A stretch of 64,000 nt of DNA from a virus: IMG/VR virus record IMGVR_UViG_3300032246_002986, positions 1 to 64,000 of that record; one strand, given 5' to 3'. Each line of letters starts with the position of its first letter. Position 1 is the stretch's first letter. Shown here piece by piece: positions 14,776 through 32,021 of this stretch. Both the position numbers and the translations under genes were made by a program. The notes beneath the pieces are model-generated. The model made no database searches. It was not told where the DNA came from and saw only the letters and a program-made list of their open reading frames with translations.

Positions 14776-15841
14776 TGTACAAGAGCAATATGCAGATTGC
14801 AAAGCAGAAATAGATCACGCAGTGCAGGGCGTGATGGCTGGTGGTCAATTCTTCCAGGCAGACTACAACGTTCAGTTGGCAAACATCATCAGCAACAGAT
14901 ATGGATATGCCAATGTGCAGTTGACGAGCAGTTGCACAGCAGCACTACACGCCAGCTTGCTAGCACTAAAACTGCCTGCTAACAGCAACGTAGCTGTGCC
15001 TGCTCTCACATATGTGGCTACAGCACAGGCAGTGATAGCTGCTGGTCACAATCCGGTGTTCATAGACGTGGATAAACATTGGTTGATGGATGTGAACGAT
15101 CTGTACTGGGCTATGTACAGAGAACATAAGATAGCCGCTGTGATAGCTGTGGACTTGTACGGACAGGGCCCTGACATAGAAAAGATAGCGGCCCTGTGTC
15201 GCGATCGTGGCGCCAAACTGATAATAGACGCTGCTCAAAGTTTCGGTCTGCACAGCAAAAAATATAATCAATTGGCAGCAGATGCCATATGTCTCAGTTT
15301 CAATCCCCTGAAAAACCTGGGTGGTATGGGCGGCGGTGCTATTGTCAGCACCCAGCTGGATCCTGTGTTGCTCAGAGCCATATGCCACGAGGGAAAAACC
15401 AGCAGTGGCCCAGCAGGGCAAGCTGAATATCACGGATTAAATTACCGTATGGACAGCGTACAGGCTGCTATGTTGACAGCAAAGTTGCCCTACTATGACC
15501 GTATGAAACAACGTAAATTCGACATCTGTGAACGCTATTACGCAGAGTTTGCAGGGCTTGTGGAAATGCCAGACAGAGCTGACAGCGGGCATCAACATTA
15601 CATCTTTGCTATGGCACCTGACAATGCAGACACAGTGCGACAGAGCCTCAGCAATGCTGGTATAGGCACAAGCAGCCATTATCAGAGACCGCTCACGAGC
15701 GAACCAGCGTTCAGCTGGTATTACAGGACTTGTCCCAAAGCAGATAGATTGGAAGGCCGTATAATCAGCTTGCCAGCTCACTGGCATCTGAGTGATTCAG
15801 ATGTGGACACAGTGGTCAAAGTGGTTAAATCTGCGCTGTGA
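14759..15841 (+). CDS. DegT/DnrJ/EryC1/StrS-family PLP sugar aminotransferase
   Basis: SCTAAL, TYVAT, PVFIDVD, DAAQSFG, SFNPLKNLG (PLP lysine), NYRMD. Confidence 0.92.
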   Translation: MINFYNVQEQYADCKAEIDHAVQGVMAGGQFFQADYNVQLANIISNRYGYANVQLTSSCTAALHASLLALKLPANSNVAVPALTYVATAQAVIAAGHNPVFIDVDKHWLMDVNDLYWAMYREHKIAAVIAVDLYGQGPDIEKIAALCRDRGAKLIIDAAQSFGLHSKKYNQLAADAICLSFNPLKNLGGMGGGAIVSTQLDPVLLRAICHEGKTSSGPAGQAEYHGLNYRMDSVQAAMLTAKLPYYDRMKQRKFDICERYYAEFAGLVEMPDRADSGHQHYIFAMAPDNADTVRQSLSNAGIGTSSHYQRPLTSEPAFSWYYRTCPKADRLEGRIISLPAHWHLSDSDVDTVVKVVKSAL

Positions 15842-18072
15842 CGCTGACTGAAATATTCATCTAACCATCGCCATTCCACGGTTTTCAGCAGTTCGTCGTG
15901 GTACACCAAGCTGCCATAATATTCTATGGCATCTGCTGCGCCCATCAACTGCCAATCTGCATCTGATCCCATGGCATTATGTTGCCACTGATGCAGGCGA
16001 TATTGGCTTTCGATGGTCATTTCACTTATATTGGCATCCAATAATTTGATCACTTCACGAAAAGCGGTACGCCAGCTGATAACCGGATCGGTCAACATTG
16101 TTTCGCTGACTACTTCAGGCACCACCGTGTGTTTTTGTGCCAGTGTTATATCCAACCCACCACGATTGTCCAACATCAGTCTCGCATTATAAGCGATGGG
16201 AGCCATATGCCCATATGTCAGTCCAGTGTTGAGATTACGATTGTGGAATATGTAGTGTTTGGGTTCCTGCCAATAGTCTGGTGTCCAGTTCATCTCGACC
16301 AGGCTGGGCAAAACCTGGCACTTGGCGAATACTGCTATGAACCAGGGCGTGGTGCTCATACTGCTTGCTGCCTTGTAAGCAGCCAATCTGCCATTTACAC
16401 CTGTGAGCAACTTGGCATCAGGACAGATGCTCAGTAACCGCTGGTAATTCGCATCAGCATCTGGTTCGCCATTGCTGATGAAGATAACATCTGTTTTTTC
16501 ATCTGGCGCACAGTATTGTTTTAACAGATATGGATATTGATATATTTCTGTGGCGCAGACACAGTCCCTGGGTACCAGACTGATGCTGTGGCTTTTATTG
16601 AGTGCCATCACTGGTCTTTTTTCCCACAGGCACACGATAGGTTGCTCAGGCACAGATAGACCGCTGGGCACGAACAGGCTATACAAAGCGTGATCGCGTT
16701 TGATCAATGCCTCAGATAGACTGTCATTGTCATATGATACCACTGGCCAGGGTTTACGTTTCACGCTGCTGTGATCGAAATTGAATTCCATCTTGTCGGG
16801 GTCGAAACTAGGCACGTGTATGAGGAACGTATCACCTTTCTCACAATCGCCACTGGGCCAACAATGCACCTGATGCCTCTGATCCAGGTCGGGCAACCAG
16901 TGGAAATCGAATCCAGTATAGTCACAACAGTCTGCTATGATCCACAGCCATTCCTGTTCAGCTTTGTTCACAGCATTACGGATGCTCTGCTGCATCGTGG
17001 TTATCAGTTTGACGTTATAATCTGCGGTGTGTGGTTGCAGGCCCGTGTCCAGGTTACACACATTGGTATGGTGCTGTAATTGTTGCTGGGTATGGTAATA
17101 TTTGTACCCGGCGAAATCTGAGATGGCGTCCTGGTGTATCAGCCAGGTATAACTCAACTGTTGTTTGTCTCTGAGAGCGAAGCAATGGATGTATCTGGTG
17201 TCCCAGGCATCTGGTAACCAATCGAACGCTGCATCATCATACTGTATGCGTCGGTCTGCTATCCAGGTCCACTCCCTGCCTTGTGCTAATTCACAGGCAG
17301 CGTGGTAATCAGGCTTCTGTTTGCTGTGATCCTGCCAATATAACACAGGTGTCACATCGGCTTTGAATCTCAGATCGCTTTTACGGTATATGGTATGGTC
17401 CAGGCCGTCCCTGTTTACTAGCCTGGTATAACTGAGGCTTTCTGTGCCAGCTAGGCAGAACGCCTGTGTGCTGTACTGATCCCAGGCATCTGGTAACCAA
17501 CTCCAATCCCAACCAGTGTAGTCCACACGGTTATCAGCCAGCCAGGCCCATCGGACATCTTCAGGTATGGTGTCAGTGTCATAATAGATGGGCGTGTATT
17601 TCAGGCGCAGATCGCTTTTATGGTATTTCTTTATCTTGCTACCACGTGCCAGCCTGGTATAGCTCAGCTGCTGTGTGCCGGCCATTGCGAATTCGTGATC
17701 CTGATCCCAATCATAGATGCTGGGGAACCAAAGGAAATCGAATCCTTCATAACTGACTTCCTGATCAGTGTGCCATTGCCATAAGCCAGATGCCGCTCTT
17801 CTGACCGGTATCAGTGTATCATAAAAATGTTCGCCACTGCTGTCAGCTGTCAGCAACCAAGTGGTATAACACTCTGGATTGTTGTGGCTGGGCCAGGCGT
17901 GATTGAACTTGGTTTGATGCCTGTGTGGTATGAATCTTAGATCGAAATTGGTGTAATCTACGGCACGATGTAGCAACCACACAAACTCCGTGTTGGCTGC
18001 TGCTAATGCACTGGCTTTTAATTGTTGTATATCGGTACAATCGTCATAATCGTACCAGTAGATGTCAAACAT
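15778..18072 (-). CDS. repeat protein: five Trp-rich GT-A-like repeats plus a C-terminal glycosyltransferase-like domain
   Basis: Repeated W.W..D....Y..FD..WLPD.WD...H.F unit; C-terminal DVIFISNGEP...WRTAFREVIKL domain is paralogous to 27867..28799. Confidence 0.7.
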   Translation of the reverse strand: MFDIYWYDYDDCTDIQQLKASALAAANTEFVWLLHRAVDYTNFDLRFIPHRHQTKFNHAWPSHNNPECYTTWLLTADSSGEHFYDTLIPVRRAASGLWQWHTDQEVSYEGFDFLWFPSIYDWDQDHEFAMAGTQQLSYTRLARGSKIKKYHKSDLRLKYTPIYYDTDTIPEDVRWAWLADNRVDYTGWDWSWLPDAWDQYSTQAFCLAGTESLSYTRLVNRDGLDHTIYRKSDLRFKADVTPVLYWQDHSKQKPDYHAACELAQGREWTWIADRRIQYDDAAFDWLPDAWDTRYIHCFALRDKQQLSYTWLIHQDAISDFAGYKYYHTQQQLQHHTNVCNLDTGLQPHTADYNVKLITTMQQSIRNAVNKAEQEWLWIIADCCDYTGFDFHWLPDLDQRHQVHCWPSGDCEKGDTFLIHVPSFDPDKMEFNFDHSSVKRKPWPVVSYDNDSLSEALIKRDHALYSLFVPSGLSVPEQPIVCLWEKRPVMALNKSHSISLVPRDCVCATEIYQYPYLLKQYCAPDEKTDVIFISNGEPDADANYQRLLSICPDAKLLTGVNGRLAAYKAASSMSTTPWFIAVFAKCQVLPSLVEMNWTPDYWQEPKHYIFHNRNLNTGLTYGHMAPIAYNARLMLDNRGGLDITLAQKHTVVPEVVSETMLTDPVISWRTAFREVIKLLDANISEMTIESQYRLHQWQHNAMGSDADWQLMGAADAIEYYGSLVYHDELLKTVEWRWLDEYFSQRHSADLTTLTTVSTSESLRCQ

Positions 18073-19156
18073 GACTCTGATAACCTGGCATCAAGTATGC
18101 TATCTGACGCTGTTCATAGTCTGCATCAGCCCAGTTATAATCGTATACAGCCACATCTGTGCCCACTTGCAGGCTATAGATGTCAAGATGACGGCTCATG
18201 GTATTCCAGATGCTTTCCACGTCGGTTGTACCGAAACTACGTTTAAAATCTATCCGGCCTATTTCCAGATAACCAAGGCTCAATTCCGGGTCAGCAGGAT
18301 CATATCCCTGGCGTTCCAACCAGATGTTGAAATCATCTATTTCCTGCGTATGCCAGGGTTGATTGCCATAAGTTATGTCACGTCCCCATTCGATGTCGAA
18401 CTCACCGCTGTAGTATTGCAGGTGCGTGATGGCATCGCAAGTGGCTGCATCTATATCTGGTGCGCCTTCGTCTCTGAACACTTCCATAAGTGTCTTGCCT
18501 ATCTGTGTCCAGTGCATATACACGTGGCCAAACTTGCGATCGAAACCGTTGGCAGCAAATCCTTTACGATGTTCTCGATTGAGTTTATATCTGCGAGCAT
18601 TCAGGAATGTGGTTATCTGGCTGGGCCTGACCCACTCGGGTGTGTAATGTGCTTTACGCAGGCTCAGACATAATGTCTCTATTTCGTGACACAGATTGTT
18701 CAGTTGTCTGATGCTGTACTTGGTTGCAGCATCTACTTTCTTGTAGTAATCACTGAGATTTTCCACAGTGCCTTGCAGATGCTCAAAATGATTGTGTATG
18801 AGATTCATAATATCATGGTTGGGTCCACCACCGCGCTCACCAGGAATATTAACATCAGTAAAAGGCACCATCACTTGATCCGGAGCGATCAGATCTATTT
18901 GCGGATAATCTGGTATACCTGTATTGATCTGCTGGATATGTCTGTTCAATTGTTCACACAAGTATGATAGATCACGCTGTGTCCTGGGCCAACCGTGCCA
19001 GCAGTAATTCTTTTCCAGATGGCTATTTTTCTGTATTTCTTGTTGCAAGGCACACAACCAGTCTGCTGCCAGTTCTGTGCCATTGCCATTGATATGTATG
19101 GGTAATAATTCCAAGGGAAACAGTGGATTTCTAACCGTCATTATTAAATCATTCAT
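18065..19156 (-). CDS. hypothetical protein within the radical SAM operon
   Basis: 363-aa ORF with 8-nt overlaps on both sides; IHNHFEHL and LNNLCHEIE His/Glu motifs. Confidence 0.8.
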   Translation of the reverse strand: MNDLIMTVRNPLFPLELLPIHINGNGTELAADWLCALQQEIQKNSHLEKNYCWHGWPRTQRDLSYLCEQLNRHIQQINTGIPDYPQIDLIAPDQVMVPFTDVNIPGERGGGPNHDIMNLIHNHFEHLQGTVENLSDYYKKVDAATKYSIRQLNNLCHEIETLCLSLRKAHYTPEWVRPSQITTFLNARRYKLNREHRKGFAANGFDRKFGHVYMHWTQIGKTLMEVFRDEGAPDIDAATCDAITHLQYYSGEFDIEWGRDITYGNQPWHTQEIDDFNIWLERQGYDPADPELSLGYLEIGRIDFKRSFGTTDVESIWNTMSRHLDIYSLQVGTDVAVYDYNWADADYEQRQIAYLMPGYQSHV

Positions 19157-20450
19157 CGATGCTTCTCCACCAGTCTTGAGCTGGCTTGTATGCTGATAAT
19201 ATACTATCCATAGTCAGATTGCAAGTTCTTATTTGCTCTAATTTCTGGATATGTGCTTTGCCTCGGCGAGCAGCCTGCTGATACTCATCTGGCCACTGCT
19301 CTGCGAATGTTGGTCTGGTTTTTAGATGCTGTAACACTTCCACGATGCTGCGATTACGATCAGATATTTCCGATATTATCTGATCTACCCAGGGTTCCAG
19401 GATGTGTCTGGGTAATGCCAGTGGGCTCATCATTATGTCTGGTGTGAAGGCGAATACAACCTTGCTCAATATGCCAATATCAAGATCAGCACCAAGAGCC
19501 ACAATACCGGCAATATCGGCAAGGCCAGGTAGAGTAAGAGTATGATCAAGACGAATTTGAGCAGGTCGTCGTTGGTGTTTAATGCCCTCTCTAATATTAC
19601 GAACAAAAGTATCATAATCAAGACCAGTTCTAACATATTCGCCTATGGCTCCTGTTGCGTCCAGACTGGCACATATCTCCCAGTGTGGAAAATTATCCAG
19701 CAGTTGATAAAGGTTACCCTTCTTGTCGTTTATATAGCTGAGGTTGGTGTTGTACCTGATGCGAACCTGATCAGCATATCCCAGCTCTACGATACGATGC
19801 ATGAATTCCCAGTGTTCTTCATACAGCAGTGGTTCTCCACCCACCCAGTATATTTCTCTAACTGATTTATTTTCGATGGCGTTGCGGAATTCTGGTATCA
19901 CAGTATCGCGAACAAAGTGTCTGATCTTGTGACGATTTTCTGGTCGCATCCAATGGTTTTTGGGATTGGCCAGATCCACCATATTGTTCTTTTGAACTTC
20001 TATCTCCCATTTGCTGCTGAGCATATCACCACACATACGGCAACTGAAGTTGCAAACGTTACTGTAACGATAGTCCCAGCTTATGGGGCTCAGACTGGTG
20101 GTGCCGTCGGCTGCGGTATGGTTAAGGATATCATCTCGCAGGTGACCGAACAGGTGTCCGAAATAATCGCGGTAAACACTAGTGTTGAGAAGTTTTTTAT
20201 CGCACACTTGACATTCGTCAGGTACTTGGCCACTGAGCCATTTGGTACGTACCTGTCTCACGTGCTCGCTGTTCCACCATTGATCCAATGCCAGCGGACG
20301 GAATTCTCCGTCACCGCCTGCCGTGTCTATGTATTGACGAAAATTTTGGGCAGGTTCTCTGCTCGCACAACATAGACGGCGTTCTCCTTGAGGACTGATG
20401 TAAGTGTGTGTCCAGGGTGCGACACAAAAATCATTTGCAGAGATGACCGT
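19149..20450 (-). CDS. N-terminal Twitch-domain radical SAM protein (7th), apparent non-ATG start
   Basis: CNFSCRMC and VGGEPL; frame continues upstream of the track's TTG start through DFCVAPWTH...RLCC to ACG 20450, with an in-frame TAG just upstream. Confidence 0.85.
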   Translation of the reverse strand, partial: TVISANDFCVAPWTHTYISPQGERRLCCASREPAQNFRQYIDTAGGDGEFRPLALDQWWNSEHVRQVRTKWLSGQVPDECQVCDKKLLNTSVYRDYFGHLFGHLRDDILNHTAADGTTSLSPISWDYRYSNVCNFSCRMCGDMLSSKWEIEVQKNNMVDLANPKNHWMRPENRHKIRHFVRDTVIPEFRNAIENKSVREIYWVGGEPLLYEEHWEFMHRIVELGYADQVRIRYNTNLSYINDKKGNLYQLLDNFPHWEICASLDATGAIGEYVRTGLDYDTFVRNIREGIKHQRRPAQIRLDHTLTLPGLADIAGIVALGADLDIGILSKVVFAFTPDIMMSPLALPRHILEPWVDQIISEISDRNRSIVEVLQHLKTRPTFAEQWPDEYQQAARRGKAHIQKLEQIRTCNLTMDSILSAYKPAQDWWRSIDE

Positions 20451-21678
20451 AATCCTTTTCTAACCAGGGAAATATTTGCCGCCAATCGGTATTACGACGC
20501 CGATCTATTTCATTTAAAAATATCAATAATTTTCTTATCTCATCCAGATTCTGGTTGTTGCTGTATATTTCCTTTATCAGACCAACAAAATAATCTTTTT
20601 GTCCTAGATAATTGATTTTATCAAATTTAACCAAGCTGCGATTTAAATCTTTGCTGAAATATTTTCCAAAGATGTTGGGAGCCAGATAGGATGGTTTAAC
20701 GATGGGCATAAACCAAAAATAAACAGGATTTATTTTGTTCCAGGTGTTGATCTTTTCTATAAGATCAGGTAATGTTTTCAAACCGATGTTGGTCAAAGCA
20801 GCATTGACAGTCACAGTGATTGATTTCTGTTGCAAGATGTAAACGAAATTTTCTTCCCACTGTTTCAGATCCAGACCAGTGCGGATGTATTCTGCTTCAG
20901 GTCCCCAGCAATCCAAACTGCAGGTTATCTGTAGGCTGCCTATCTGCTTATCGGTTATCAATTGATTGAATTTATCTATATACTTCTGCAACTTCCATTT
21001 GCTGGTTTTCAAATTAGTGAAAATGACTATTTTTATTTCTGGGTTGGAGTGTTTGCGGAAAAATTCCAAACACTCGTCCATCTCTTTCTGGAAAAATGGT
21101 TCTCCACCCAATATCTGCAATATCTTTATGTGCTGGTAATTTTTTTCCAGATATATCCATAACTGTTGTTTCAATTGATCATAATTTTTACCGTTGGCCA
21201 TGTCATTACTTTTGACTATTTCACTGTCTATGCGGATACTGCCGAATTTTTTCAATTCCTGTTCCCATACACTGCTGTAATAGGGCCCACAATAGATGCA
21301 ACTCATGTTACAGATATTATTGAAATATATTTCCAAGGTAGTGGGTGTGACGTTTGTAGCCAGGGGATTTTCTGATAATTCATGGGGAGTGTGTTCTCCT
21401 GAAAAATCTTGTTTGATGACTCGCTCACTTACACCCCCGGCCTGTTCGATATCTCGACAGTACTCACAACCATTTCCGGGCCATTGGCCCTGTAACATAG
21501 CTTCTCTATCTCTTATCTTTACAGGTAAATTATGAAAATCCTGGAAATTTTCCACAGTAAGGTCTGTCTGCTTGCAACGATGACAACTACTGGTGGTCTC
21601 CCTGTGCAAGAACACCGTGCTCCAGTTCCATTTTAGCCTGCAGGCAGTGGCGGTTTTGATGGGAAATTCTGACGTCAT
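20431..21678 (-). CDS. N-terminal Twitch-domain radical SAM protein (6th)
   Basis: CRLKW...SSCHRC...GCEYC, CNMSCIYC, LGGEPF, C-terminal DRRRNTDW..IFPW. Confidence 0.9.
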   Translation of the reverse strand: MTSEFPIKTATACRLKWNWSTVFLHRETTSSCHRCKQTDLTVENFQDFHNLPVKIRDREAMLQGQWPGNGCEYCRDIEQAGGVSERVIKQDFSGEHTPHELSENPLATNVTPTTLEIYFNNICNMSCIYCGPYYSSVWEQELKKFGSIRIDSEIVKSNDMANGKNYDQLKQQLWIYLEKNYQHIKILQILGGEPFFQKEMDECLEFFRKHSNPEIKIVIFTNLKTSKWKLQKYIDKFNQLITDKQIGSLQITCSLDCWGPEAEYIRTGLDLKQWEENFVYILQQKSITVTVNAALTNIGLKTLPDLIEKINTWNKINPVYFWFMPIVKPSYLAPNIFGKYFSKDLNRSLVKFDKINYLGQKDYFVGLIKEIYSNNQNLDEIRKLLIFLNEIDRRRNTDWRQIFPWLEKDYGHLCK

Positions 21679-22715
21679 AGGTTGTTCACCGGTAAGTTGG
21701 CAACGTTTTTCAGATAATCGATATTATCTAAATATTGTTGGTGTCTGGGATGTGCGGGTTTCCATACTGCTTGATCGTCGAAATTAGGATAGGTGTTCCA
21801 GTCCAGGATTTTAGTAAAGTTGATCTTCCACCTGGGATATTCAGACATAAATTGTTTTGCCAACAATAGGTCATCCAGATTAAGAGCTTGCACTACATAG
21901 GAAAAATTTACCTGTAGCTCAGGTTTGGTATCCCTGAGCCAATGTAGATTTTCCAGGAGATTTTTATAATTTCCACCACGTCTGACCTGCTCATATACAG
22001 GTTTACTGAAAGCGTCGATGGATATTTCCACCTGTTTGATTTTATCTTCCATATGTGACAATTTGTGCCATCTGTCTTTCATCAACAGTCCATTGGTCCG
22101 CAATTTTATCTCACTCTCTGGATGATTCAACTGGAATTTAGTCACAAAGTCAATGTACAGATTGCTGGCAAATAAATCGCCATCGCCAAATAAGGTAAGT
22201 TTCAAAGGATGCTGGTATACATTGATCAACTGCGCCAGCTTGTCCAGTATTCGTTGTTTCTTGTCATATTCAGGACCGGATTTGTAGTACACGAATTCAT
22301 TACGACAACTGGGACAGGTCAGATTGCAACTGCGATCCACTGCTATCTCGATGATATAGGGTCTAGCTACTGTGGGCAATGATGATAAACCAGTGCGATT
22401 GCCTTTTAAAAAACTACAGATATTCAAAGCACAGTATCTGTAACTGCCATCCGCTACGCCGGATTGGATTTCTTTGGCTCTGGGACTGGCCATTATTTCT
22501 TCCAATGAGCCAAAGTCTTGCAGATTGCCCACGCTTATGGGCAACCATTCGCTGCAACCACATACAAAGCAGCGTCCCTGATGATCTATGTTTAGGCTAT
22601 TCCAGGGATATTCACATATGCAATCTAATTTTAAATCTTTATCGAAATCCATTTTGTGTACGCGATACTTGAATCGCATATCTGGATCAAGATCTTTGAA
22701 AGTTATCTTACTCAT
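21675..22715 (-). CDS. radical SAM protein with N-terminal SPASM/Twitch-like domain (5th)
   Basis: CEYPW...CFVCGC...YRYC...C, CNLTCPSC; GDGDLF replaces GGEP. Confidence 0.88.
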   Translation of the reverse strand: MSKITFKDLDPDMRFKYRVHKMDFDKDLKLDCICEYPWNSLNIDHQGRCFVCGCSEWLPISVGNLQDFGSLEEIMASPRAKEIQSGVADGSYRYCALNICSFLKGNRTGLSSLPTVARPYIIEIAVDRSCNLTCPSCRNEFVYYKSGPEYDKKQRILDKLAQLINVYQHPLKLTLFGDGDLFASNLYIDFVTKFQLNHPESEIKLRTNGLLMKDRWHKLSHMEDKIKQVEISIDAFSKPVYEQVRRGGNYKNLLENLHWLRDTKPELQVNFSYVVQALNLDDLLLAKQFMSEYPRWKINFTKILDWNTYPNFDDQAVWKPAHPRHQQYLDNIDYLKNVANLPVNNL

Positions 22716-23856: not shown

Positions 23857-25133
23857 AGCAGGTCCTTGAATTCAGGTATGACATCCAGGATGTTTTCTCC
23901 ACGTATCTGATCCAACTGATTGGTTTTTTGCCAAAACTTGGCCAGCAGATGTGATTTGTCCTCTGCGTTCATGAATTTGATAGCACTCTCGAATCCCACG
24001 GTGGCCCGGGTCAGTGTGTCGTGTGGACGCAACCATTCCAGATGTTCGGTGTATAAATCGGTTATCTGTTGTTTGGATTTCACAGGCAGCACATCCAATC
24101 GATACCTGTCAGGATTTTGTAGGATGTTGATATTAAGATCCTGGTGCTTGATGAAACCTTTGCTGACCCAGTCTTTGTGGAACTCTGGCAGATGCCAGGC
24201 GTTCATTATACTGAGCGTGGGACTGATGTAGAAATCCACACCAGGACATATCTTGAGCATCTGTTCTCTGTTGGATTCCACATTGGCCCACTTGGTGCCC
24301 TTGCGTATGTATTCTGCTGTATCACCCATAGCATCCAGGCTGGCACCCACGCTGACACTGCGAAACTCTCGCCACAATTCAAGCACATTGGTCTTCTTGT
24401 AGACCAGTTCGCTGAAATTGGTGTTGTAGATCAGCCTGACATTGGTCCTGCCTCTGGCTATCAATTCCTTTAACAGGCGATAATGTTCTTCCATTATCAG
24501 TGGTTCGCCTCCAGCAAAATACACCTGCTCCAGATTATCGATCTGGGGTTCCAACTGATTCCATATGTCATCGGGATCGCGTCCTGCGAAGTTGATGCGT
24601 TTGTTTTTGCTTTTCCATTCTTCTCCGGCCAGCTTGACCTGATCATCATACCAGTTACTACTGAAGATATGTCCACAGCTACGGCAACGCAGGTTACACA
24701 GGTTACTGAATCTGATGTCCCAGTAGATCAATCTCATCTGTTCCACGGTACCGTCGCTCAGCGTGTCATCCGTCAGAGCGATGTGATGTCCGAAATGCTT
24801 GTTGGCGCTCAGTCGCATACTGAAGAAACCCGACTGTTCCTGTTCATAACATCTGGTACAGCCAGCAACAGGTTCGCCATTCAACATCTTCAGTCTGACA
24901 TCACGCAACGCCGTGTCATTCCATATTTCTTTTATGGTTTTATCACGGGTATTGCCTATGACATCGGCATCGTTGGTGTTACAACAGGGATATGCTTCTC
25001 CAGTGGGAAAAGCGTGGATGTGTATCCAGGGGTACATACAAAAACTGTCGTTGTTGTATATGAGATCCTTGTGTTTTTCAGAGAAATTCTTGACAGGTAC
25101 GAGTGGGTCTTTGCTGTTATAGTTGTACTTCAT
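23853..25133 (-). CDS. N-terminal Twitch-domain radical SAM protein (3rd)
   Basis: FCMYPW...YPCC...CTRC, CNLRCRSC, AGGEPL. Confidence 0.9.
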   Translation of the reverse strand: MKYNYNSKDPLVPVKNFSEKHKDLIYNNDSFCMYPWIHIHAFPTGEAYPCCNTNDADVIGNTRDKTIKEIWNDTALRDVRLKMLNGEPVAGCTRCYEQEQSGFFSMRLSANKHFGHHIALTDDTLSDGTVEQMRLIYWDIRFSNLCNLRCRSCGHIFSSNWYDDQVKLAGEEWKSKNKRINFAGRDPDDIWNQLEPQIDNLEQVYFAGGEPLIMEEHYRLLKELIARGRTNVRLIYNTNFSELVYKKTNVLELWREFRSVSVGASLDAMGDTAEYIRKGTKWANVESNREQMLKICPGVDFYISPTLSIMNAWHLPEFHKDWVSKGFIKHQDLNINILQNPDRYRLDVLPVKSKQQITDLYTEHLEWLRPHDTLTRATVGFESAIKFMNAEDKSHLLAKFWQKTNQLDQIRGENILDVIPEFKDLL

Positions 25134-26472
25134 GATACCATTCTGTTAATAGTGGAAAGGCTGACATAAAATCCTTGCCACGCCTGCGATCATACTGTAT
25201 GATGAATGCACGTAGATCTAGGTCTAATGTCATACCATCACTGGAATTGTTATGGGGTGTGGTAGCTGTATTTAAGTATTCGATCAGGCGCTTTACGTGT
25301 TCTCGCTCCATCTCGTGCAATAGATCGCTATCAGCATAAGTGTCCAAGAACAGTCGCAACCTATCACAGCACTGTTGTTTGATAGTATCAGGCATTACCA
25401 CGGGAGATTGGAAGCTGGGAAATCTCAGGATGTTTAATGTGAATGTGGGTTTGCTTTTGCCATACTGCCTTTTGAAATCCATACACTGTTCCAGGAAATC
25501 TGGCAGTGTGGGTAAACATAATCCGTTGATCGTACACATCATATGGAAGGCTTTTACGTTGCCGTGTGTGAGTAATTTGTGTATATTGTCGATATAATCA
25601 GTGTACACCAGCCCATCGCGTATCCATTCGGCCGCTGAACCTGTGGCCTCGCAGCTGGTGTATATCTCCATATTGTCTATGTCGTGGGTGGCCTGTATCA
25701 ACCTATCGATCAGATCGGGTTTAGCACCCAGGTTGCTGTTGACAGCCAGCCTGACATCGCTCTTGTTTTGCCGGAACCAATCGAACAATCTCCAGATATG
25801 CGGACTCATCAAGGGCTCGCCACCTGTGATACGCAACTCACGTAGCGAGTTGTGTAGATCCGTGTCCCACCAACGGAAAAATGCTTCCACATATGGATTG
25901 GTTTCATCCAAAGCATACAACTGGCTGGCACTGTGCTCGTGAGTATAATGATTGCGACCGTCGCTGGTCAGATTGGTATAAGCACCATTCTGTTTGATAT
26001 CTTTGACCCAGGTTGTGCTGAAAGCTGGATTACAATAACTGCAAGCGAAATTACAGGTCCTGTCGAAAGCTATCTCGAGTGTACGCAGATTGAAGTCGCT
26101 GTGAGGATCGGCGAAAGCATCCGATAGTTCTTTTTCACTATAGATCATACTTTTATAAGGACGATCACTGATGGCATTAGGACTATTGTCTTCGATGCGC
26201 CAGCAGTATTCACATCCTGCAGGACGCTGCCCTTGTGCCATCATCAATCGTTCTGTTTTCTTTTGGACGGTATTGTGCAAGGCACGTGGATTGATGGCGA
26301 CTTGCTCTGCACTTACTTTATGCGGCAGAGGGTGATGGCAGCTGGTGGTCTGTCCGGATCCCAACCACACTGTAGCATTATACCATTTGGCACCACAGAA
26401 GCTGGCGCTTTTTGTATCTAATACTCTTTGTTTGTATTGTTGGAAAGATTCGTTGGATTTTTTGCTACGCAT
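25117..26472 (-). CDS. N-terminal Twitch-domain radical SAM protein (2nd)
   Basis: FCGAKW...TSCHHP...GCEYC, CNFACSYC, TGGEPL. Confidence 0.9.
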   Translation of the reverse strand: MRSKKSNESFQQYKQRVLDTKSASFCGAKWYNATVWLGSGQTTSCHHPLPHKVSAEQVAINPRALHNTVQKKTERLMMAQGQRPAGCEYCWRIEDNSPNAISDRPYKSMIYSEKELSDAFADPHSDFNLRTLEIAFDRTCNFACSYCNPAFSTTWVKDIKQNGAYTNLTSDGRNHYTHEHSASQLYALDETNPYVEAFFRWWDTDLHNSLRELRITGGEPLMSPHIWRLFDWFRQNKSDVRLAVNSNLGAKPDLIDRLIQATHDIDNMEIYTSCEATGSAAEWIRDGLVYTDYIDNIHKLLTHGNVKAFHMMCTINGLCLPTLPDFLEQCMDFKRQYGKSKPTFTLNILRFPSFQSPVVMPDTIKQQCCDRLRLFLDTYADSDLLHEMEREHVKRLIEYLNTATTPHNNSSDGMTLDLDLRAFIIQYDRRRGKDFMSAFPLLTEWYHEVQL

Positions 26473-27892
26473 TGTCTGCCCTGTACTTACACTCGTCCCA
26501 CCACTCTGTCATTTCTGGGAATGTATTTAAAAAGTTTGTACCACGTCTATTATCGTGTTCTGTAAAAAATCGGTAAAAGTCTGCTTTGACCACAGGATCG
26601 TCCCGGCGATTGGCTCGCATCCAATCCACAACACGTTGTAGCCGCTGTATCTCATAATCTTTGAACCCTTGGAAACGCCGGGTTTCCGTTTCAGGAGTCT
26701 GTCTCATCCAGTCTGTGATCTGTTGCAGCTTCCAAGCATAGGCTTCGGGCATGATGTCCAGGCACTGCCAAGTTGGGCTGCGTAGTATAGGGGTATCGAA
26801 CCACACACGTTGATAATCAGTGCTGAATTCCTGTCTGAGTTTCAGGATGGTATCCAATAAATTTTGTAAACCACCTATGCTGAGATTGTTCATTGTTATG
26901 ATGAATGTTATGCTGCTGCGTTTGTCCACATCAGATAAGAACTGGCCCACGTTGGTTATCATATGGTCATAATCCAGTCCGTGCCTGATATAATCTGCCT
27001 GCTCGTATGCGCTGTCCACACTGACAAACTGCATGAAGTGTTCCACAGCACCAGTGTCACATATCTTCTGCACCGTATTGATATACTTGAGCATCAGATG
27101 ATCTTCTACACTGAAGTTGCTGGTGACATTCAGATGCAGATCAGGTTTGGGATTTGCTATCACATAGTCCAACACACGAAAGGTGTTTTTGTCCATAAGC
27201 GGTTCACCACCGGTCATACGGAAATGTTTCAGTTTAGGATACAGATCCGGCCACCAACGCCAGAACGCTTCTACATAAGGATTATGGTCACGAACAGGAA
27301 TAGGCTTACGATCACTAGCAAAATATTGTGGATCGTTATGTCTGTTGGACGTGGGGTACGCTCCATACTCTTTGATCTCCTTGGCCCAAGTGCTGCTGAA
27401 CTGGGGGCTGCAATAACTGCAACGAAGATTGCAAGCACTGTTGAAATTCACTTCCACGTAACTGGGGATCACATCCCAGGTCAGTGGGTCTTTTGTGGTT
27501 ATGTCTGCATAGGCTTCTGCTGCCCAGGGTTCACCACTGCGGTAATGCCTGTCGCTCAGGTTACCCGTGGCTTCCACTTTCCAGCAATAACTGCAACCCT
27601 GCGGTTTCTGGCCTTGGAGCATCTGTACTCGTTCGGATTTTTTATGACTGGTGTTATGTAGCGCACTGGGGTTATCTTGTAAATCATCTGCATTGATCCT
27701 GTGTAATGGTGGATGATAACAACTGTTGGTGTGTCCAGTTGTCAGGTGTAGGCTGGTCTGTTGCCATTTGGCCAAGCACAAGGCTGGTCCGAGCTGGGCT
27801 TGCATCTGCTCAGCACTGCTCATGAACTCGCTGTTGAGTGTGCCGTCGGTATTTACTGTCACTTTATCACCGGAATTTTCTAGCTGCGTCAC
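26465..27892 (-). CDS. N-terminal Twitch-domain radical SAM protein (1st)
   Basis: LCLAKW...NSCYHP...GCSYC, CNLRCSYC, TGGEPL. Confidence 0.9.
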   Translation of the reverse strand: MTQLENSGDKVTVNTDGTLNSEFMSSAEQMQAQLGPALCLAKWQQTSLHLTTGHTNSCYHPPLHRINADDLQDNPSALHNTSHKKSERVQMLQGQKPQGCSYCWKVEATGNLSDRHYRSGEPWAAEAYADITTKDPLTWDVIPSYVEVNFNSACNLRCSYCSPQFSSTWAKEIKEYGAYPTSNRHNDPQYFASDRKPIPVRDHNPYVEAFWRWWPDLYPKLKHFRMTGGEPLMDKNTFRVLDYVIANPKPDLHLNVTSNFSVEDHLMLKYINTVQKICDTGAVEHFMQFVSVDSAYEQADYIRHGLDYDHMITNVGQFLSDVDKRSSITFIITMNNLSIGGLQNLLDTILKLRQEFSTDYQRVWFDTPILRSPTWQCLDIMPEAYAWKLQQITDWMRQTPETETRRFQGFKDYEIQRLQRVVDWMRANRRDDPVVKADFYRFFTEHDNRRGTNFLNTFPEMTEWWDECKYRADNA

Positions 27893-28799
27893 GCAGGAAA
27901 CTCCTATACAAGTGTTCTGGCATCATTATATCTATATTCTCATAGGGTTGTTGGTTGCGTTTGAACCAGGCGCTTTGTTCTGGTGTGAGTTCCACGATAT
28001 CCAATGCTAATCTTTTGGTCAATACCTCTGTGTGGAAATCTTGATTCTCTTGTGTCCAGCAATCATCGTACAGTTGATCCAGTTTATGGAAATCACGCAC
28101 CTCAGTATAGTCCCAGTCTGGCTCGAACATGACTTTATAGGCACCGTGGCGAGCTCCTGCGATAGCCCAGTTGCCGTTCTCCACATCTGCGCCCACGCTA
28201 CACCATATGGCCAGATTATCACGATTACCCACCCAGGTTTCAGATTCGAAATCTTCTGGATCTATGCGCCTGCCACGAGCCAGACACAGCTTGACGCCTT
28301 CGCGGAATCCAGCTCGCCAGGCCTGGTGTGATGTGGCATTGGGATATGTGGTGCTCCACACATCGTGCATCGCCCAGTAATCGTCTGCAAAACAAAACTC
28401 CACTAGGGTCTCATCGGTACCGTCCGTGGCTTCGTGTGTTTTCATATTCTGCACGAATGTCTTGGTCCAGCTACTGATGCCACCATTGCCATAACACAGG
28501 CCGTTCACGATGTTGCGAGCCCGCCAGCGGAATACTTTGCTATCGTTGGTATGATCTATGCGTAGCGTCTGATTGAAAAATTCCGGATCGGGACGATTGT
28601 CGCCGTCTATCAAGATGAAGCGTTCTGTACTGCTAGCTGCGGCTGCTGCCTTGTGTGCAGCATCTGAACCTTCCACACCGTGTACACGTTTGGCCCAGGG
28701 TGCGATGCTCTTTAGATATATGAAATTTTCATCAGCATCAGGTTCATCATAGCTGAGGAATACACAATCCAGATCCGAAACGTCAACTAACTCGACCAT
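27867..28799 (-). CDS. GT-A-like putative glycosyltransferase
   Basis: DCVFLSYDEP, GVEGSDAAH, FILIDGD (DxD), AWRAGFREGVKL; start reassigned to ATG 28799 based on the overlap. Confidence 0.65.
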   Translation of the reverse strand: MVELVDVSDLDCVFLSYDEPDADENFIYLKSIAPWAKRVHGVEGSDAAHKAAAAASSTERFILIDGDNRPDPEFFNQTLRIDHTNDSKVFRWRARNIVNGLCYGNGGISSWTKTFVQNMKTHEATDGTDETLVEFCFADDYWAMHDVWSTTYPNATSHQAWRAGFREGVKLCLARGRRIDPEDFESETWVGNRDNLAIWCSVGADVENGNWAIAGARHGAYKVMFEPDWDYTEVRDFHKLDQLYDDCWTQENQDFHTEVLTKRLALDIVELTPEQSAWFKRNQQPYENIDIMMPEHLYRSFLRDAARKFR

Positions 28800-29139
28800 A
28801 ACCCCATCCTTGAGCGCCTGGATAATCAGCTGACACTGCAAACTGATTATCGTTATGTAAAGTATAGTACACATTGCCACCTGTTTGCAATCTAATAGTT
28901 GCTGTCGGTCGCATATCCACCGGTTTTCCGTCTATGACTTTGTAATCAGCAGCTCTGTTGAATATGAAACTATTGTCGACCACGACAAAAACTCCTGGCA
29001 GGTCCTCATAGGTTACCACTGTGCCAATTAGAGTGTGGGGATCATAGTATAATTTATAAACCAATTTAACACTTGGTTTGGTCTGTTGTTCAACCAATCG
29101 GAAAACTTCAGCCCAGTACTCTTCGAAATTCATACTCAT
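28783..29139 (-). CDS. hypothetical protein
   Basis: 118-aa ORF in the coupled operon. Confidence 0.7.
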   Translation of the reverse strand: MSMNFEEYWAEVFRLVEQQTKPSVKLVYKLYYDPHTLIGTVVTYEDLPGVFVVVDNSFIFNRAADYKVIDGKPVDMRPTATIRLQTGGNVYYTLHNDNQFAVSADYPGAQGWGYGRVS

Positions 29140-29935
29140 ATCTATCTATCAATTCATCAGTAGCGAATGTTTTCTGTTGGTAATGCAGGGGCCTGTGCTG
29201 TTTATAACCGCCGATAACAGGGCTGTGATCATCTTGTATCTGCCAATCCAGCTGTTCTGTCCACATCTGTTTGCCAGGTAGATTTTGCACCTCTGGTTTC
29301 ATATGCACAAAACCAAATTTGGTATCTGCTGTGTGAATCTGTAAGATATTGTAAGCCAAGGCATATACTTCGTCCGTCCTGGCCGTATCATATCTACAGT
29401 TGATCAGGTAATGATCCCTGTACCAATTCCAGTCCAATACGATCTGGTTACAAGTATCGTAAAATTGTTTTGCTGTGAGATCATATTCGAAATAAGTCCA
29501 AGCACTATAGATATCTGGCAACATATTATCATCGAAAAGTTTACGTTGGCTGCGATCTGTCGCAATACGATGATCATATGTGTAAACTGTATGAGTAAAA
29601 TTTAAAGCATTTTGTCCATATATGTTCCACATATGGCTGTAGTCGCTGGTAAAAAGCATATCTGCTTCTGTCTTGATAGTGCGTTTATATGGACTCAGAT
29701 TGAAAACATTCGTTTCGTGCATTATGGGATGCAACACGTGGCTCACGACGATTATTTTATCGAACGTGTTATTCTGTTTTTCTGTTATGCATTCACTTGT
29801 TTCGGTATCCACTATGACACTGAAGTTTGCATTTTTTTTCTGCGTGAGTTTACAACTCAGCGCCTGCAAGTAAGCCATCCGCAGATAATCATTGCTGTCT
29901 GTATTGGTCGCCACACACAAAAACCCTGCACTCAT
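29108..29935 (-). CDS. GT8-like putative glycosyltransferase
   Basis: LSPYKRTIKTEADML (DxD-like EAD), RTDEVYA, FVHMK; paralog of the next gene. Confidence 0.6.
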   Translation of the reverse strand: MSAGFLCVATNTDSNDYLRMAYLQALSCKLTQKKNANFSVIVDTETSECITEKQNNTFDKIIVVSHVLHPIMHETNVFNLSPYKRTIKTEADMLFTSDYSHMWNIYGQNALNFTHTVYTYDHRIATDRSQRKLFDDNMLPDIYSAWTYFEYDLTAKQFYDTCNQIVLDWNWYRDHYLINCRYDTARTDEVYALAYNILQIHTADTKFGFVHMKPEVQNLPGKQMWTEQLDWQIQDDHSPVIGGYKQHRPLHYQQKTFATDELIDRYEYEFRRVLG

Positions 29936-30687
29936 TTGCTGCCCTTGTTCATCAGATGCAGATCGGTATCTTTGAATCTGTTGCGATATAATTTGTCGCC
30001 TATACTATACTCATAGGTCAAACTATTGTTTTTGAATTTATCATAATTTACCCTGCTGTCCATATTGATCAGCGGATAATTGGCAAATCCATAATCTGCC
30101 ATACCATAACCTCCAGCTATATGGCAGGCAATGGAAAATATGTAATCGTTTCTCACAGGCGTGGGATAAAATTTATACAGAGCGGAGTAATAGTCGTAAT
30201 GTTGCTGTACCATTTTAGCACATTCGAATACATTATGAGCAATGTTGCCTTTATTGAATAACATCACAGTGGCCCAACACAGGGGTATGGCTGTTTTAGC
30301 CAGTTGCTCTTTACGTATTGTTCCACTGATAGGGTCATATAATTCGGTAGTAATGACAAAGTCAGTGTTGCCGTTTATATGATTAACCAGTGTATCACTA
30401 CAGATGAAATAATCGCTGTCTATGACAAGTGTGCGATCATATGGTGTAAGATCGTAAGCCTGTGTTCTGGCTAGATTGAACCATTGTTTTTTTAATCTGC
30501 GATTATGATCTGGAGCATCTATCACTATGTTATCGTGTTCCGATAACACTTCGCGATCGCTTATGATAGTCACCGGTAAATCCAGATATCTGTTGACCCG
30601 TTCGCCAGCTAATACAGCGTCAGATATGTAATCTATATCATCTGTATTAAAAGCAAATATGCAGCAACCTTTAGAGTTGTTGGGCAT
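29932..30687 (-). CDS. GT8-like putative glycosyltransferase
   Basis: LTPYDRTLVIDSDY (DxD), WATVMLF, RNDYIFS, LHLMNK. Confidence 0.65.
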   Translation of the reverse strand: MPNNSKGCCIFAFNTDDIDYISDAVLAGERVNRYLDLPVTIISDREVLSEHDNIVIDAPDHNRRLKKQWFNLARTQAYDLTPYDRTLVIDSDYFICSDTLVNHINGNTDFVITTELYDPISGTIRKEQLAKTAIPLCWATVMLFNKGNIAHNVFECAKMVQQHYDYYSALYKFYPTPVRNDYIFSIACHIAGGYGMADYGFANYPLINMDSRVNYDKFKNNSLTYEYSIGDKLYRNRFKDTDLHLMNKGSK

Positions 30688-31003
30688 TTCTTACCTGTGT
30701 TTGTTCTTGGTATTGCTGTTGCCATTCGTTCATTACTTCTACATAACGTCGTTTAGCCAGCGTCAGTAGTTCCATCCTGTTAACCATAACTGGAGTGTCA
30801 TACATATCCAAGATTATCATTTCATCGTTCCAACCATCATCTGGCAGGAGATTCAGCAACACAAACAATTCCGTATTGACTGGAAACACACCATCGCGAT
30901 GTGTCACCGTTAATCTGCTGGTCATCAGAGTCTTGAGATTTTGTTTTGCCAGCAGACGGTCGTAGGTTGCACGGGCTTGATCACGTAATTGTTCTTGATT
31001 CAT
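30671..31003 (-). CDS. hypothetical protein (first gene of the GT/radical SAM operon)
   Basis: 110-aa ORF directly behind a consensus promoter. Confidence 0.75.
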   Translation of the reverse strand: MNQEQLRDQARATYDRLLAKQNLKTLMTSRLTVTHRDGVFPVNTELFVLLNLLPDDGWNDEMIILDMYDTPVMVNRMELLTLAKRRYVEVMNEWQQQYQEQTQVRNAQQL

Positions 31004-31009
31004 CTTGTA

Positions 31010-31038
31010 ATTATAACAGATAGGTTTAATTTTGTCAA
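31010..31038 (-). promoter_or_regulatory. perfect sigma70 consensus promoter, likely leaderless
   Basis: On the - strand: TTGACA(31038-33)-N17-TATAAT(31015-10) with extended TG; ATG lies 6 nt downstream. Confidence 0.8.
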
Positions 31039-31995: not shown

Positions 31996-32014
31996 AACTT
32001 CCTATCCTTGTACC

Positions 32015-32021
32015 TATTTAT
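32015..32021 (-). promoter_or_regulatory. T4-late-like promoter motif
   Basis: ATAAATA upstream of ATG 31995. Confidence 0.55.

Follow-up and report, generated by a model that had tools for sequence, protein, structure and literature searches.

Introduction

The fibril glycans of giant viruses are made by viral glycosyltransferases (GTs) and nucleoside diphosphate (NDP)-sugar enzymes that decorate virion proteins, and mycobacteriophages reportedly glycosylate their capsids and tail tubes, in work said to be by Freeman et al. in 2023. To our knowledge, neither of these virus-encoded glycosylation machineries includes a radical S-adenosylmethionine (SAM) enzyme. Here we describe a phage operon of about 15 kb that places seven radical SAM genes behind GT-like genes; it is like these machineries in combining GT-like and NDP-sugar genes, and virion glycosylation is a candidate role drawn from the genes. 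The operon lies in the first 64 kb of the 86.5-kb IMG/VR record IMGVR_UViG_3300032246_002986, and these 64 kb, the whole stretch that was analysed, are called the window below. CheckV estimates the completeness of the record at 25%, which indicates a jumbo phage of roughly 340 kb, and this size agrees with three relatives bounded by direct terminal repeats (328-344 kb).

The closest described arrangement in phages is the host recognition cluster (HRC) of T4-like pelagimyophages and cyanomyophages, which the consulted sections of Zaragoza-Solas et al. 2020 (PMC7029224) describe as a fibre-adjacent region with GT and radical SAM cassettes. The present locus is likewise a variable island that adjoins tail-fibre genes of large myophages and carries GT-like and radical SAM genes. 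However, the HRC is hypervariable according to those sections, whereas here a ten-gene core, including five radical SAM orthogroups at 53-74% identity, recurs in 80 loci; moreover, the HRC phages are T4-like, whereas the present clade, likened to them by description only, consists of jumbo phages of about 300-345 kb, with Ralstonia phage RsoM2USA as a distant relative. The same sections describe the HRC glycosyltransferases as mostly GT8, an assignment that our analysis does not support for g2 and g3, the second and third genes of the operon. Elsewhere, the available text on 'Moraphages' (PMC12619734) reports four core putative glycosyltransferase orthogroups and does not contain the word 'radical', the available part of bioRxiv 10.64898/2026.10.24.761521 does not mention radical SAM, and that of PMC8066314 lists radical SAM genes in another jumbo phage.

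Among described enzymes, the closest family is NF033640 (N_Twi_rSAM), which has the same N-terminal Cys-rich domain followed by a CxxxCxxC core as the phage paralogs; what distinguishes the phage genes from this family in general is the presence of five to seven members in one operon, and that one of the seven, g10, falls below the family cut-off. Our literature search found neither a published reaction for NF033640 / N_Twi_rSAM nor a paper on the inverted domain order. SPASM and twitch domains are described as C-terminal extensions in the accessible portion of PMC9012708, which also presents BtrN as a twitch radical SAM enzyme that oxidizes an aminocyclitol, an amino-sugar-like substrate. BtrN (PDB 4M7T/4M7S), the 2-deoxy-scyllo-inosamine dehydrogenase of butirosin biosynthesis, shares its twitch domain with the g8 profile. 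In BtrN, however, this domain is C-terminal, whereas in the phage enzymes it is N-terminal and thus departs from the reviewed position; BtrN has 270 aa, compared with 346-475 aa for the phage enzymes, and no match was detected outside of the twitch domain. Judged by these alignments, the phage enzymes share a twitch domain with BtrN but are not members of the BtrN family.

An earlier, sequence-only reading of the window stated that no characterized pathway has this architecture. We also found none in the literature, but the pattern of fibre-adjacent GT and radical SAM genes was already in print (PMC7029224, in the sections consulted). Virus glycan machinery, fibre-adjacent islands and NF033640 are already known; new here is the conserved core of a putative radical SAM cascade.

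Radical SAM enzymes with an N-terminal twitch domain

The seven radical SAM genes, g6-g12, stand in tandem.

g6, 26465-27892, minus strand: 475 aa, N-terminal-twitch radical SAM, 'SC-H' subtype
g7, 25117-26472, minus strand: 451 aa, N-terminal-twitch radical SAM, g6 subtype
g8, 23853-25133, minus strand: 426 aa, N-terminal-twitch radical SAM, 'CC' subtype
g9, 22708-23856, minus strand: 382 aa, N-terminal-twitch radical SAM
g10, 21675-22715, minus strand: 346 aa, divergent radical SAM with the same inverted layout, accessory
g11, 20431-21678, minus strand: 415 aa, N-terminal-twitch radical SAM, g6/g7 subtype, accessory
g12, 19149-20459 (listed TTG start 20288), minus strand: N-terminal-twitch radical SAM

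The CxxxCxxC motif occurs once per protein, at residues 154, 140, 146, 110, 130, 123 and 79 of g6 to g12, respectively, and is invariant in the seven-paralog alignment; the cluster motif of g6 (residue 154) reads CNLRCSYC. Five of the seven reach the 29.5-bit cut-off of Pfam Radical_SAM (PF04055), namely g8 (30.8), g9 (38.5), g10 (42.0), g11 (29.5) and g12 (33.1), while g6 (20.4 bits) and g7 (28.5 bits) are below this cut-off but pass NF033640. The latter, with a cut-off of 170 bits, is passed by six of the seven (g6 324.3, g7 286.3, g8 416.9, g9 346.9, g11 231.6 and g12 241.1) with matches that span almost the whole 398-position profile; g10, at 58.3 bits, is under the cut-off. By these profile scores, g6-g9, g11 and g12 belong to the catalogued NF033640 (N_Twi_rSAM) family.

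In every paralog, the auxiliary twitch-type domain is N-terminal to the radical SAM core. The Pfam SPASM model (cut-off 21.5 bits) scores above its cut-off in g8 (40.2), where it covers residues 32-96 ahead of Radical_SAM at 141-285, and in g10 (27.4), where it covers residues 34-96, again N-terminal to Radical_SAM; it scores below the cut-off in g9 (19.3) and was not detected in g6, g7, g11 or g12. Domain matches of this kind indicate that the inverted domain order is genuine and already catalogued. Three cysteines of the N-terminal domain are invariant in all seven paralogs and a fourth is present in six, and two subtypes can be distinguished, one with a Cys-Cys pair (g8, g9, g10 and g12) and one with Ser-Cys (g6, g7 and g11). 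When the g8 ortholog profile was searched against the PDB, BtrN was the sole match, with query residues 30-97 aligned to residues 186-256 of the BtrN twitch domain (E 8e-4), and an ESM Atlas search with g8 returned viral twitch radical SAM clusters only. The sequence-only reading had proposed seven tandem Twitch radical SAM paralogs, a proposal borne out by the motif, by the family scores and by the BtrN match. The paralogs are 18-27% identical to g8, compared with 53-74% among orthologs across the clade, which implies that the duplications are old and that each radical SAM enzyme has been conserved separately.

The start of g12 requires comment. The form beginning at the listed TTG (20288) has 379 aa, lacks the first Cys motif and matches NF033640 only from profile position 41. 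Its frame is open to about 20459, overlapping the stop of g11, and the resulting 436-aa form includes this motif in its extension, with no in-frame ATG, GTG or TTG ahead of the N-terminal Cys motif. The orthologs of g12 have 425-457 aa and begin M-N-D-F-C, where the window has A-N-D-F-C; the difference might reflect use of a rare start codon, re-initiation once g11 has been translated, or an error in sequencing. Beyond the window, the record contains an eighth N-twitch-like radical SAM gene (record positions 76953-78263, minus strand; 436 aa, 26% identical to g9), which stands alone at a distance of about 46 kb from the operon.

Conservation of the operon among uncultured relatives

A profile scan of IMG/VR with g8 identified 113 related stretches, the best 80 of which were compared. 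Many of these 80 loci are truncated, either at a contig end or at the limit of the 10-kb flank, and identities of 22-29% represent cross-hits between paralogs. The module is present in 80 of 80 loci, with a core of g1-g2-g3-g5-g6-g7-g8-g9-g12-g13, and tblastn and ORF (open reading frame) mapping place the genes of relatives in the order 462-aa fibre-like protein, 318-aa protein, g1, g2, g3, (g4), g5-g9, g12, g13, (g14). Co-occurrence of radical SAM and GT-like genes in relatives had been set beforehand as a check that could refute the sequence-only reading, and the two were found together in all 80 loci. The numbers of loci with a match, of 80, are as follows.

g1: 61
g2: 72
g3: 73
g4: 13
g5: 79
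g6-g9 and g12: 80
g13: 65
g14: 33
DegT aminotransferase gene: 27
SDR (short-chain dehydrogenase/reductase) gene: 32
upstream 318-aa protein: 62
upstream 462-aa protein: 46

Ortholog alignments contained 20-42 non-identical orthologs of the 20-70 available. The orthologs of g7 are 52-67% identical over the 80 loci and those of g8 53-74%. True orthologs of g11 are found in five loci only (44-45% identity), and g10-like genes occur at other positions in few relatives (9 of 80 loci by tblastn; five distinct ORFs). Five radical SAM genes are present in 51 of the 67 loci that span g6-g12, six in nine and seven in seven, which places the window at the upper end. The five near-complete relatives each carry 6-11 N_Twi_rSAM genes, several of them outside of the operon.

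Between the core genes of relatives lie 250 accessory ORFs, which fall into 59 clusters. For a Pfam scan of 58 proteins we took 52 of the 59 cluster representatives, three fusion proteins and three RsoM2USA ORFs, leaving out seven clusters of short ORFs (about 121-152 aa). The tallies were five for Radical_SAM, three each for GDP_Man_Dehyd and Epimerase, two for RmlD, and one each for carbamoyltransferase, AMP-binding, two 2-oxoglutarate (2OG)-oxygenase families, PNP_UDP_1, cytidylyltransferase-like, GHMP kinase, APS kinase and B12-binding. The accessory genes in relatives are mostly NDP-sugar enzymes, and in several loci the interval between g6 and g7 contains SDR-like genes. The accessory gene found most often, of about 346 aa, also lies in this interval (71 ORFs in 39 loci); it is absent from the window, and its cluster matches no Pfam or NCBIfam family.

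Operon layout and transcription start

In the ORF list, the operon comprises 14 minus-strand ORFs that run from 31003 down to 15778, and it adjoins tail-fibre genes upstream. The sequence-only reading described 14 genes, each overlapping the next, behind one perfect sigma70 promoter. We confirm the promoter and the gene order but not overlap at every junction: overlaps of 4-32 nt are found at 12 of the 13 junctions, the exception being g11/g12, where a gap of 142 nt results if g12 begins at the listed TTG.

promoter, 31010-31038, minus strand: TTGACA-17 nt-TATAAT with TG before the -10 box, sigma-70-type

This is the sole perfect consensus match in the 64 kb, where 0.06 are expected and where six of 100 shuffles contained one; as a class, promoter-like sites are not enriched (46 in the region vs 39.3 +/- 6.7 expected). 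The -10 box ends 6 nt ahead of the g1 ATG, with no Shine-Dalgarno sequence, and its position suggests that the g1 mRNA has little or no leader. Of 52 distinct upstream regions of relatives, 33 have a -10-like box 4-8 nt ahead of an ATG where g1 starts, compared with 0-12 of 51-69 for the same layout at inner genes, and the perfect consensus promoter is kept in seven of 53 relatives. The best explanation, as part of a reading to which we give somewhat better than even chances as a whole, is that the operon would be a single transcription unit read by host RNA polymerase.

By Kyte-Doolittle analysis, no likely membrane helix is encoded by any of the 14 genes; values above 1.6 occur in two hydropathy windows only, one in an upstream extension of g5 that is absent from its orthologs and the other in a charged segment of g12. 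The products are acidic throughout and predicted to be soluble, three of them being strongly acidic, with K+R vs D+E counts of 34/54 (g5), 31/50 (g13) and 67/102 (g14). The window copies of g1-g5, g13 and g14 match no family in Pfam, PHROG or NCBIfam, and the 15-kb operon had no megablast match among 50,697 phage records.

GT-like genes g2, g3, g5 and g14

Four genes of the operon were considered GT-like in the sequence-only reading, two of them (g2 and g3) specifically GT8-like.

g2, 29932-30687, minus strand: 251 aa, GT-A-like candidate
g3, 29108-29935, minus strand: 275 aa, g2 paralog
g5, 27867-28799, minus strand: GT2-like candidate, 310 aa from ATG 28799, as in orthologs (extended to GTG 28880 in the ORF list)
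g14, 15778-18072, minus strand: 764 aa, very acidic, about five Trp-rich repeats and a g5-like C-domain

An alignment of 41 g2 sequences has invariant D90-x-D92 and H244/K248, and g3 has an invariant E90-x-D92 where g2 has DxD. The two profiles match in hhalign at 99.5% (E 2.8e-22), by which measure g2 and g3 are paralogs. The most conserved gene other than the radical SAM genes is g5, with an invariant D65-x-D67 and a mean column identity of 60% (42 sequences). Its profile matches that of g14 at 99.6% (E 8.2e-25), although the C-domain of g14 lacks the DxD: where g5 has ILIDGDN, the g14 consensus has a conserved AVFAK. The Trp-rich repeats of g14 lie at about residues 38, 111, 188, 283 and 388 (three found by regex and two by eye). 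Between g5 and g2, hhalign gives 2.6%, that is, no detectable kinship of the two GT-like groups.

We compared these profiles with a GT2 reference alignment of 25 bacterial proteins and a GT8 reference of four sequences. Against GT2, g5 reached 38.3% (E 3.3e-4) and g2 28.7% (E 6e-4), compared with 0.1-0.7% for g13 and g8 as control profiles. The DxD motifs of g2 and g5 fall on the DxD of GT2, the G-x-x-A...DxD pattern and the N-terminal strand are in register, and g2 is colinear from its N-terminus. Weak Glycos_transf_2 matches were found in 11 of 42 g5 orthologs (best E 0.008) and Glyco_tranf_2_3 matches in seven of 42, none of them in the window copy; among g2 orthologs, one of 41 has a sub-threshold Glycos_transf_2 match. 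At E<=1, Pfam gave no more than scattered single matches for the orthologs of g2 and g13, and PDB sequence profile searches gave best E values of 0.1 for g5 and 0.46 for g2.

The spacing of DxD...H...K in g2 is like what we take to be the GT8 pattern. Nevertheless, the GT8-like label is not supported: none of the 41 g2 orthologs matches Pfam GT8 (PF01501), and in what is a weak test, with four reference sequences, hhalign gave 5.5% for g2 and 0.4% for g3. What stands of the four GT-like genes is a weak GT2 profile with DxD for g2 and g5, whereas a GT match at family level was not obtained and g14 is without DxD. Taken together, the evidence that g2, g3 and g5 may be GT-A-like is weak but coherent. 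The g5 family comprises at least 8000 metagenome protein clusters, and among the matches listed none of 120 has a Pfam domain.

Genes g1, g4 and g13

The remaining three genes of the operon are without a family assignment.

g1, 30671-31003, minus strand: 110 aa, no Cys, first operon gene, no family
g4, 28783-29139, minus strand: 118 aa, accessory, no family
g13, 18065-19156, minus strand: 363 aa, acidic, no family

For g13, Pfam gave no match, ESM Atlas no usable match and a PDB sequence profile search nothing better than E 0.04; 744 representatives of its relatives were found at E<=0.001, without annotation. A natural fusion protein of 754 aa (P0275) joins a g13 domain to a g8-like radical SAM enzyme (E 7e-87), from which we take g13 and the radical SAM enzymes to work together, g13 being a probable partner. 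Seven further representatives of 712-775 aa (P0216, P0220, P0226, P0229, P0231, P0233 and P0252) have a C-terminal g13 domain behind an N-terminal domain of about 400 aa, which gave hhalign values of at most 2.5% against profiles of g2, g3, g5, g14, GT2, GT8, g8 and g13.

Neighbouring genes in the window

Two genes for putative sugar-nucleotide enzymes lie downstream of the operon on the opposite strand, and two genes for candidate acceptors lie upstream of it.

SDR NDP-sugar epimerase/dehydratase, 13876-14775, plus strand: Pfam Epimerase 117.7 bits (cut-off 20.9)
DegT-family aminotransferase, 14750-15841, plus strand: Pfam DegT 210.5 bits (cut-off 19.8)
318-aa and 462-aa proteins, 31039-33406, minus strand: directly upstream of the operon, the 462-aa protein matching PHROG tail-fibre families

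The genes for DegT and g14 converge tail to tail with a 64-nt overlap, and the Pfam scores agree with the sequence-only reading, in which the operon converges on an NDP-sugar epimerase and a DegT aminotransferase. The SDR and DegT proteins are likely suppliers of an NDP-amino-deoxy sugar, the exact sugar not being assigned since both are below every NCBIfam equivalog cut-off. In four of the five near-complete relatives, a full-length DegT gene is no more than about 13 kb away from the operon. No terminator-like site was found inside the DegT/g14 overlap (15778-15841), the nearest on the minus strand being at 15287-15273 and 14835-14814.

The 318-aa upstream protein is 31% Ser+Thr, and this protein and the fibre-like 462-aa protein are considered as acceptors, as candidates only. 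Beside the SDR and DegT genes sit thyA and dfr. We considered thyA as a possible hydroxymethylase and rejected this assignment, as the gene passes the thymidylate synthase equivalog cut-offs of NCBIfam. A QueD-like ORF (1117-1611, plus strand; 34 bits, short of its cut-off) and a QueE-like radical SAM gene (2868-3710, plus strand; PHROG E 3.5e-52) lie near the start of the window, and the 198-aa ORF between them has a weak EfeU/Ftr1 iron-permease match (30 bits vs a cut-off of 304). At 39641-54139 on the minus strand, an ORF of 4832 aa is followed by ORFs of 1124 and 1668 aa, a tail/baseplate region by position, which parallels the 2541-aa structural protein and baseplate genes of RsoM2USA.

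Occurrence in cultured phages and bacteria

Among the 50,697 deposited phage records, g5 was found in Ralstonia phage RsoM2USA only. This phage has a minimal module composed of ORF353 (g2), ORF352 (g3), ORF351, ORF350 (g5, 39% identity), ORF349, a g6-type radical SAM enzyme (35% identical to g6, E 2e-98), and ORF348, a second g5-like protein in which DGD is kept. The module lies in the tail gene region, beside the fibre-like ORF355 and near ORF358, a GDP-mannose 4,6-dehydratase; the available portion of the RsoM2USA paper (PMC8504454) mentions neither radical SAM nor virion glycosylation. More distant radical SAM paralogs occur in Vibrio phages, in four places in K566 and K567 and in one in VS1, and g2, g3 and g5 were not detected at the K566 locus compared.

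A scan of genome contigs with the g8 alignment found only two contigs (148 and 183 kb), from one 'Haliscomenobacter sp.' metagenome-assembled genome (MAG), each with a whole five-radical SAM operon. They are probably binned jumbo-phage contigs and provide at most a weak hint of a Bacteroidota host. Of 301 Bacteroidota genomes sampled, six have NF033640 matches at E<=1e-20, three of them above the cut-off, one of these three being the MAG with the two phage operons. In one bacterial cluster (G152), four N_Twi_rSAM genes lie beside a methyltransferase-GT2 fusion and a GT22-like gene.

Proposed pathway and its target

From the gene structure, radical SAM family membership, synteny, paralogy and sugar-nucleotide accessory genes described above, we propose catalytic steps, a substrate and a target for this operon. 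We consider it slightly more probable than its negation that the operon encodes a soluble cytoplasmic pathway in which NDP-sugar transfer would be coupled to radical tailoring of a sugar-containing product. NDP-sugars would come from the host pool and from the phage SDR and DegT enzymes and, in relatives, also via GDP-mannose dehydratase, a sugar kinase with nucleotidyltransferase, and similar enzymes. The GT-A-like g2, g3 and g5 would transfer sugar to an acceptor conserved across the phage clade. The five conserved radical SAM enzymes (g6, g7, g8, g9 and g12), here together with accessory g10 and g11, would then each abstract hydrogen from the sugar or aglycone via the 5'-deoxyadenosyl radical, each catalyzing a distinct step, whether redox, epimerization, deoxygenation or C-C chemistry. 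The predicted N-terminal auxiliary cluster may serve to accept electrons or to anchor the substrate, in the manner of BtrN or MoaA, while g13 would serve as partner of the radical SAM enzymes and g14 as a non-catalytic GT-like scaffold or binding protein. Variable accessory enzymes would diversify the product afterwards.

Several observations weigh against this pathway. The GT-like ORFs of the window reach no curated family cut-off in Pfam or NCBIfam, and g3 (0.1%) and g14 (1.6%) have no GT2 signal of their own in hhalign. The positive control, GT2 vs GT8, gave only 0.1%, which indicates that hhalign is insensitive here and that values of 29-38% are no proof. The accessory Pfam results are tallies that are not assignable to single ORFs and that include RsoM2USA and fusion proteins. 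In a second bacterial cluster (G080), two N_Twi_rSAM genes are surrounded by genes for five PhyH dioxygenases, a WelO5-type halogenase and a methyltransferase, and no glycosyltransferase gene is present. SPASM/twitch radical SAM enzymes act on peptides more often than on sugars. Finally, the sigma-70 promoter suggests early expression, which fits DNA-directed or host-directed roles better than virion decoration.

Of the possible targets, we rank first a glycan carried by a structural protein of the phage close to the fibres, a tentative choice that falls short of even odds; second a host envelope glycan, which we regard as unlikely; and third DNA or nucleotides, which appear more doubtful again. 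A virion glycan would be consistent with the fixed place of the operon behind fibre genes, even in the distant RsoM2USA, and with the adjoining Ser/Thr-rich 318-aa protein. The core enzymes (53-74% identity) exceed the neighbouring fibre proteins (about 28-50%) in conservation, which argues for a phage-encoded or universal substrate.

A more far-reaching form of the virion-glycan proposal is speculative, and we think it improbable, if worth stating. The N-terminal-twitch radical SAM enzymes would constitute a new class of carbohydrate-radical enzymes, five of which, together with g13, would form an ordered C-H activation cascade whose glycan would coat the fibres or the particle in a jumbo-phage clade that ranks among the most abundant of fresh and salt water. 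Such a cascade might epimerize, deoxygenate and rearrange, at C-C bonds or rings, a glycan assembled by GT-A-like transferases that have no Pfam family. Its product could be a sugar structure without known counterpart and the first radically tailored virion glycan, with accessory genes diversifying it as in O-antigen loci.

Alternative explanations

The alternative that survives best, although we consider it unlikely, is remodelling of the host surface, in which the enzymes would act on undecaprenyl-linked O-antigen, capsule or core intermediates at the inner membrane face, and the altered surface would block superinfection or re-adsorption of progeny during a long infection. Peripheral GT-A enzymes reach lipid-linked intermediates without a membrane helix, and we accordingly rejected the lack of membrane helices as proof against a host-surface target. 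The early expression suggested by the sigma-70 promoter fits this alternative, as does the G152 cluster, in which N_Twi_rSAM genes are coupled with a GT2 and a GT-C-like membrane transferase, and a host-surface role is the published reading of the fibre-adjacent GT and radical SAM islands of pelagimyophages (PMC7029224, in the sections consulted). On the other hand, the operon has no flippase, polymerase, ligase or GT-C gene and, as noted, no likely membrane helix, and the core is better conserved than the fibres in a clade that must infect different hosts, a pattern that speaks against a host-specific surface as substrate.

Hypermodification of DNA or nucleotides, with radical SAM and GT-like enzymes making and decorating a modified base for restriction evasion, appears less probable still. 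Phage DNA glycans are said to be diverse (reportedly Pyle et al., 2024), the promoter is of an early type, the operon abuts dfr-thyA both in the window and in its closest relatives, and QueD-like and QueE-like genes are present in the window. Yet the window thyA scores as a genuine thymidylate synthase, the ThyA family is present in 0-1 copies, with no second homolog, in the five near-complete relatives, all of which carry the operon, and two of the four relatives that are at least 90% complete have no ThyA at all. TGT/DpdA is found in none of the five near-complete relatives, such that a deazaguanine DNA pathway is not evident, and Tet_JBP is found in none of the five in a search whose control stayed silent. 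The strong acidity of g5, g13 and g14 is also unlike that of typical DNA-binding transferases.

We give slightly less weight again to peptide maturation, in which radical SAM maturases akin to those of peptides made on the ribosome and modified after translation (RiPPs) would crosslink, epimerize or oxidize a phage structural protein, be it the Ser/Thr-rich 318-aa protein, the fibres or the 4832-aa giant protein, with the GT-like ORFs as unrelated helpers. This would accord with the site beside fibre genes and with the predominance of peptide substrates among characterized SPASM enzymes (PMC9012708, in the portion available). Weak secondary NCBIfam matches link g8-g10 to the peptide maturases StsB, WgkB and DynA, but these reach 20-35 bits vs cut-offs of 340-650. 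Moreover, no RiPP recognition element (RRE)-like or precursor-like gene was recognized in this analysis, the accessory genes are overwhelmingly sugar-nucleotide enzymes, and the only solved relative found, BtrN, acts on an aminocyclitol.

Least probable by our estimate, and hardly to be expected, is a diffusible small molecule made during infection (an aminoglycoside- or nucleoside-like metabolite, or a cofactor). The set of BtrN-related twitch radical SAM enzymes, DegT, SDR and transferases resembles an aminoglycoside cluster and relatives add a carbamoyltransferase and an AMP-binding enzyme, yet the operon has no exporter, resistance or core cyclitol/nucleoside synthase gene that we could see, its position behind fibre genes is fixed even in distant phages, and we know of no small-molecule precedent in lytic phages.

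Significance

If the proposed pathway of sugar transfer and radical tailoring is correct, a very abundant clade of uncultured jumbo phages, as indicated by the g5 metagenome clusters and the 113 related IMG/VR stretches, invests 10-20 kb in a conserved pathway, and reactions could be assigned to NF033640, which is also present in bacterial clusters. Since a cultured phage, RsoM2USA, has the module in a minimal form with four enzymes, the question is testable at the bench. Working out the pathway would reveal whether radically tailored sugars are placed by large phages on their particles, their DNA or their hosts, and would account for a feature that recurs in the fibre-adjacent islands of large myophages.

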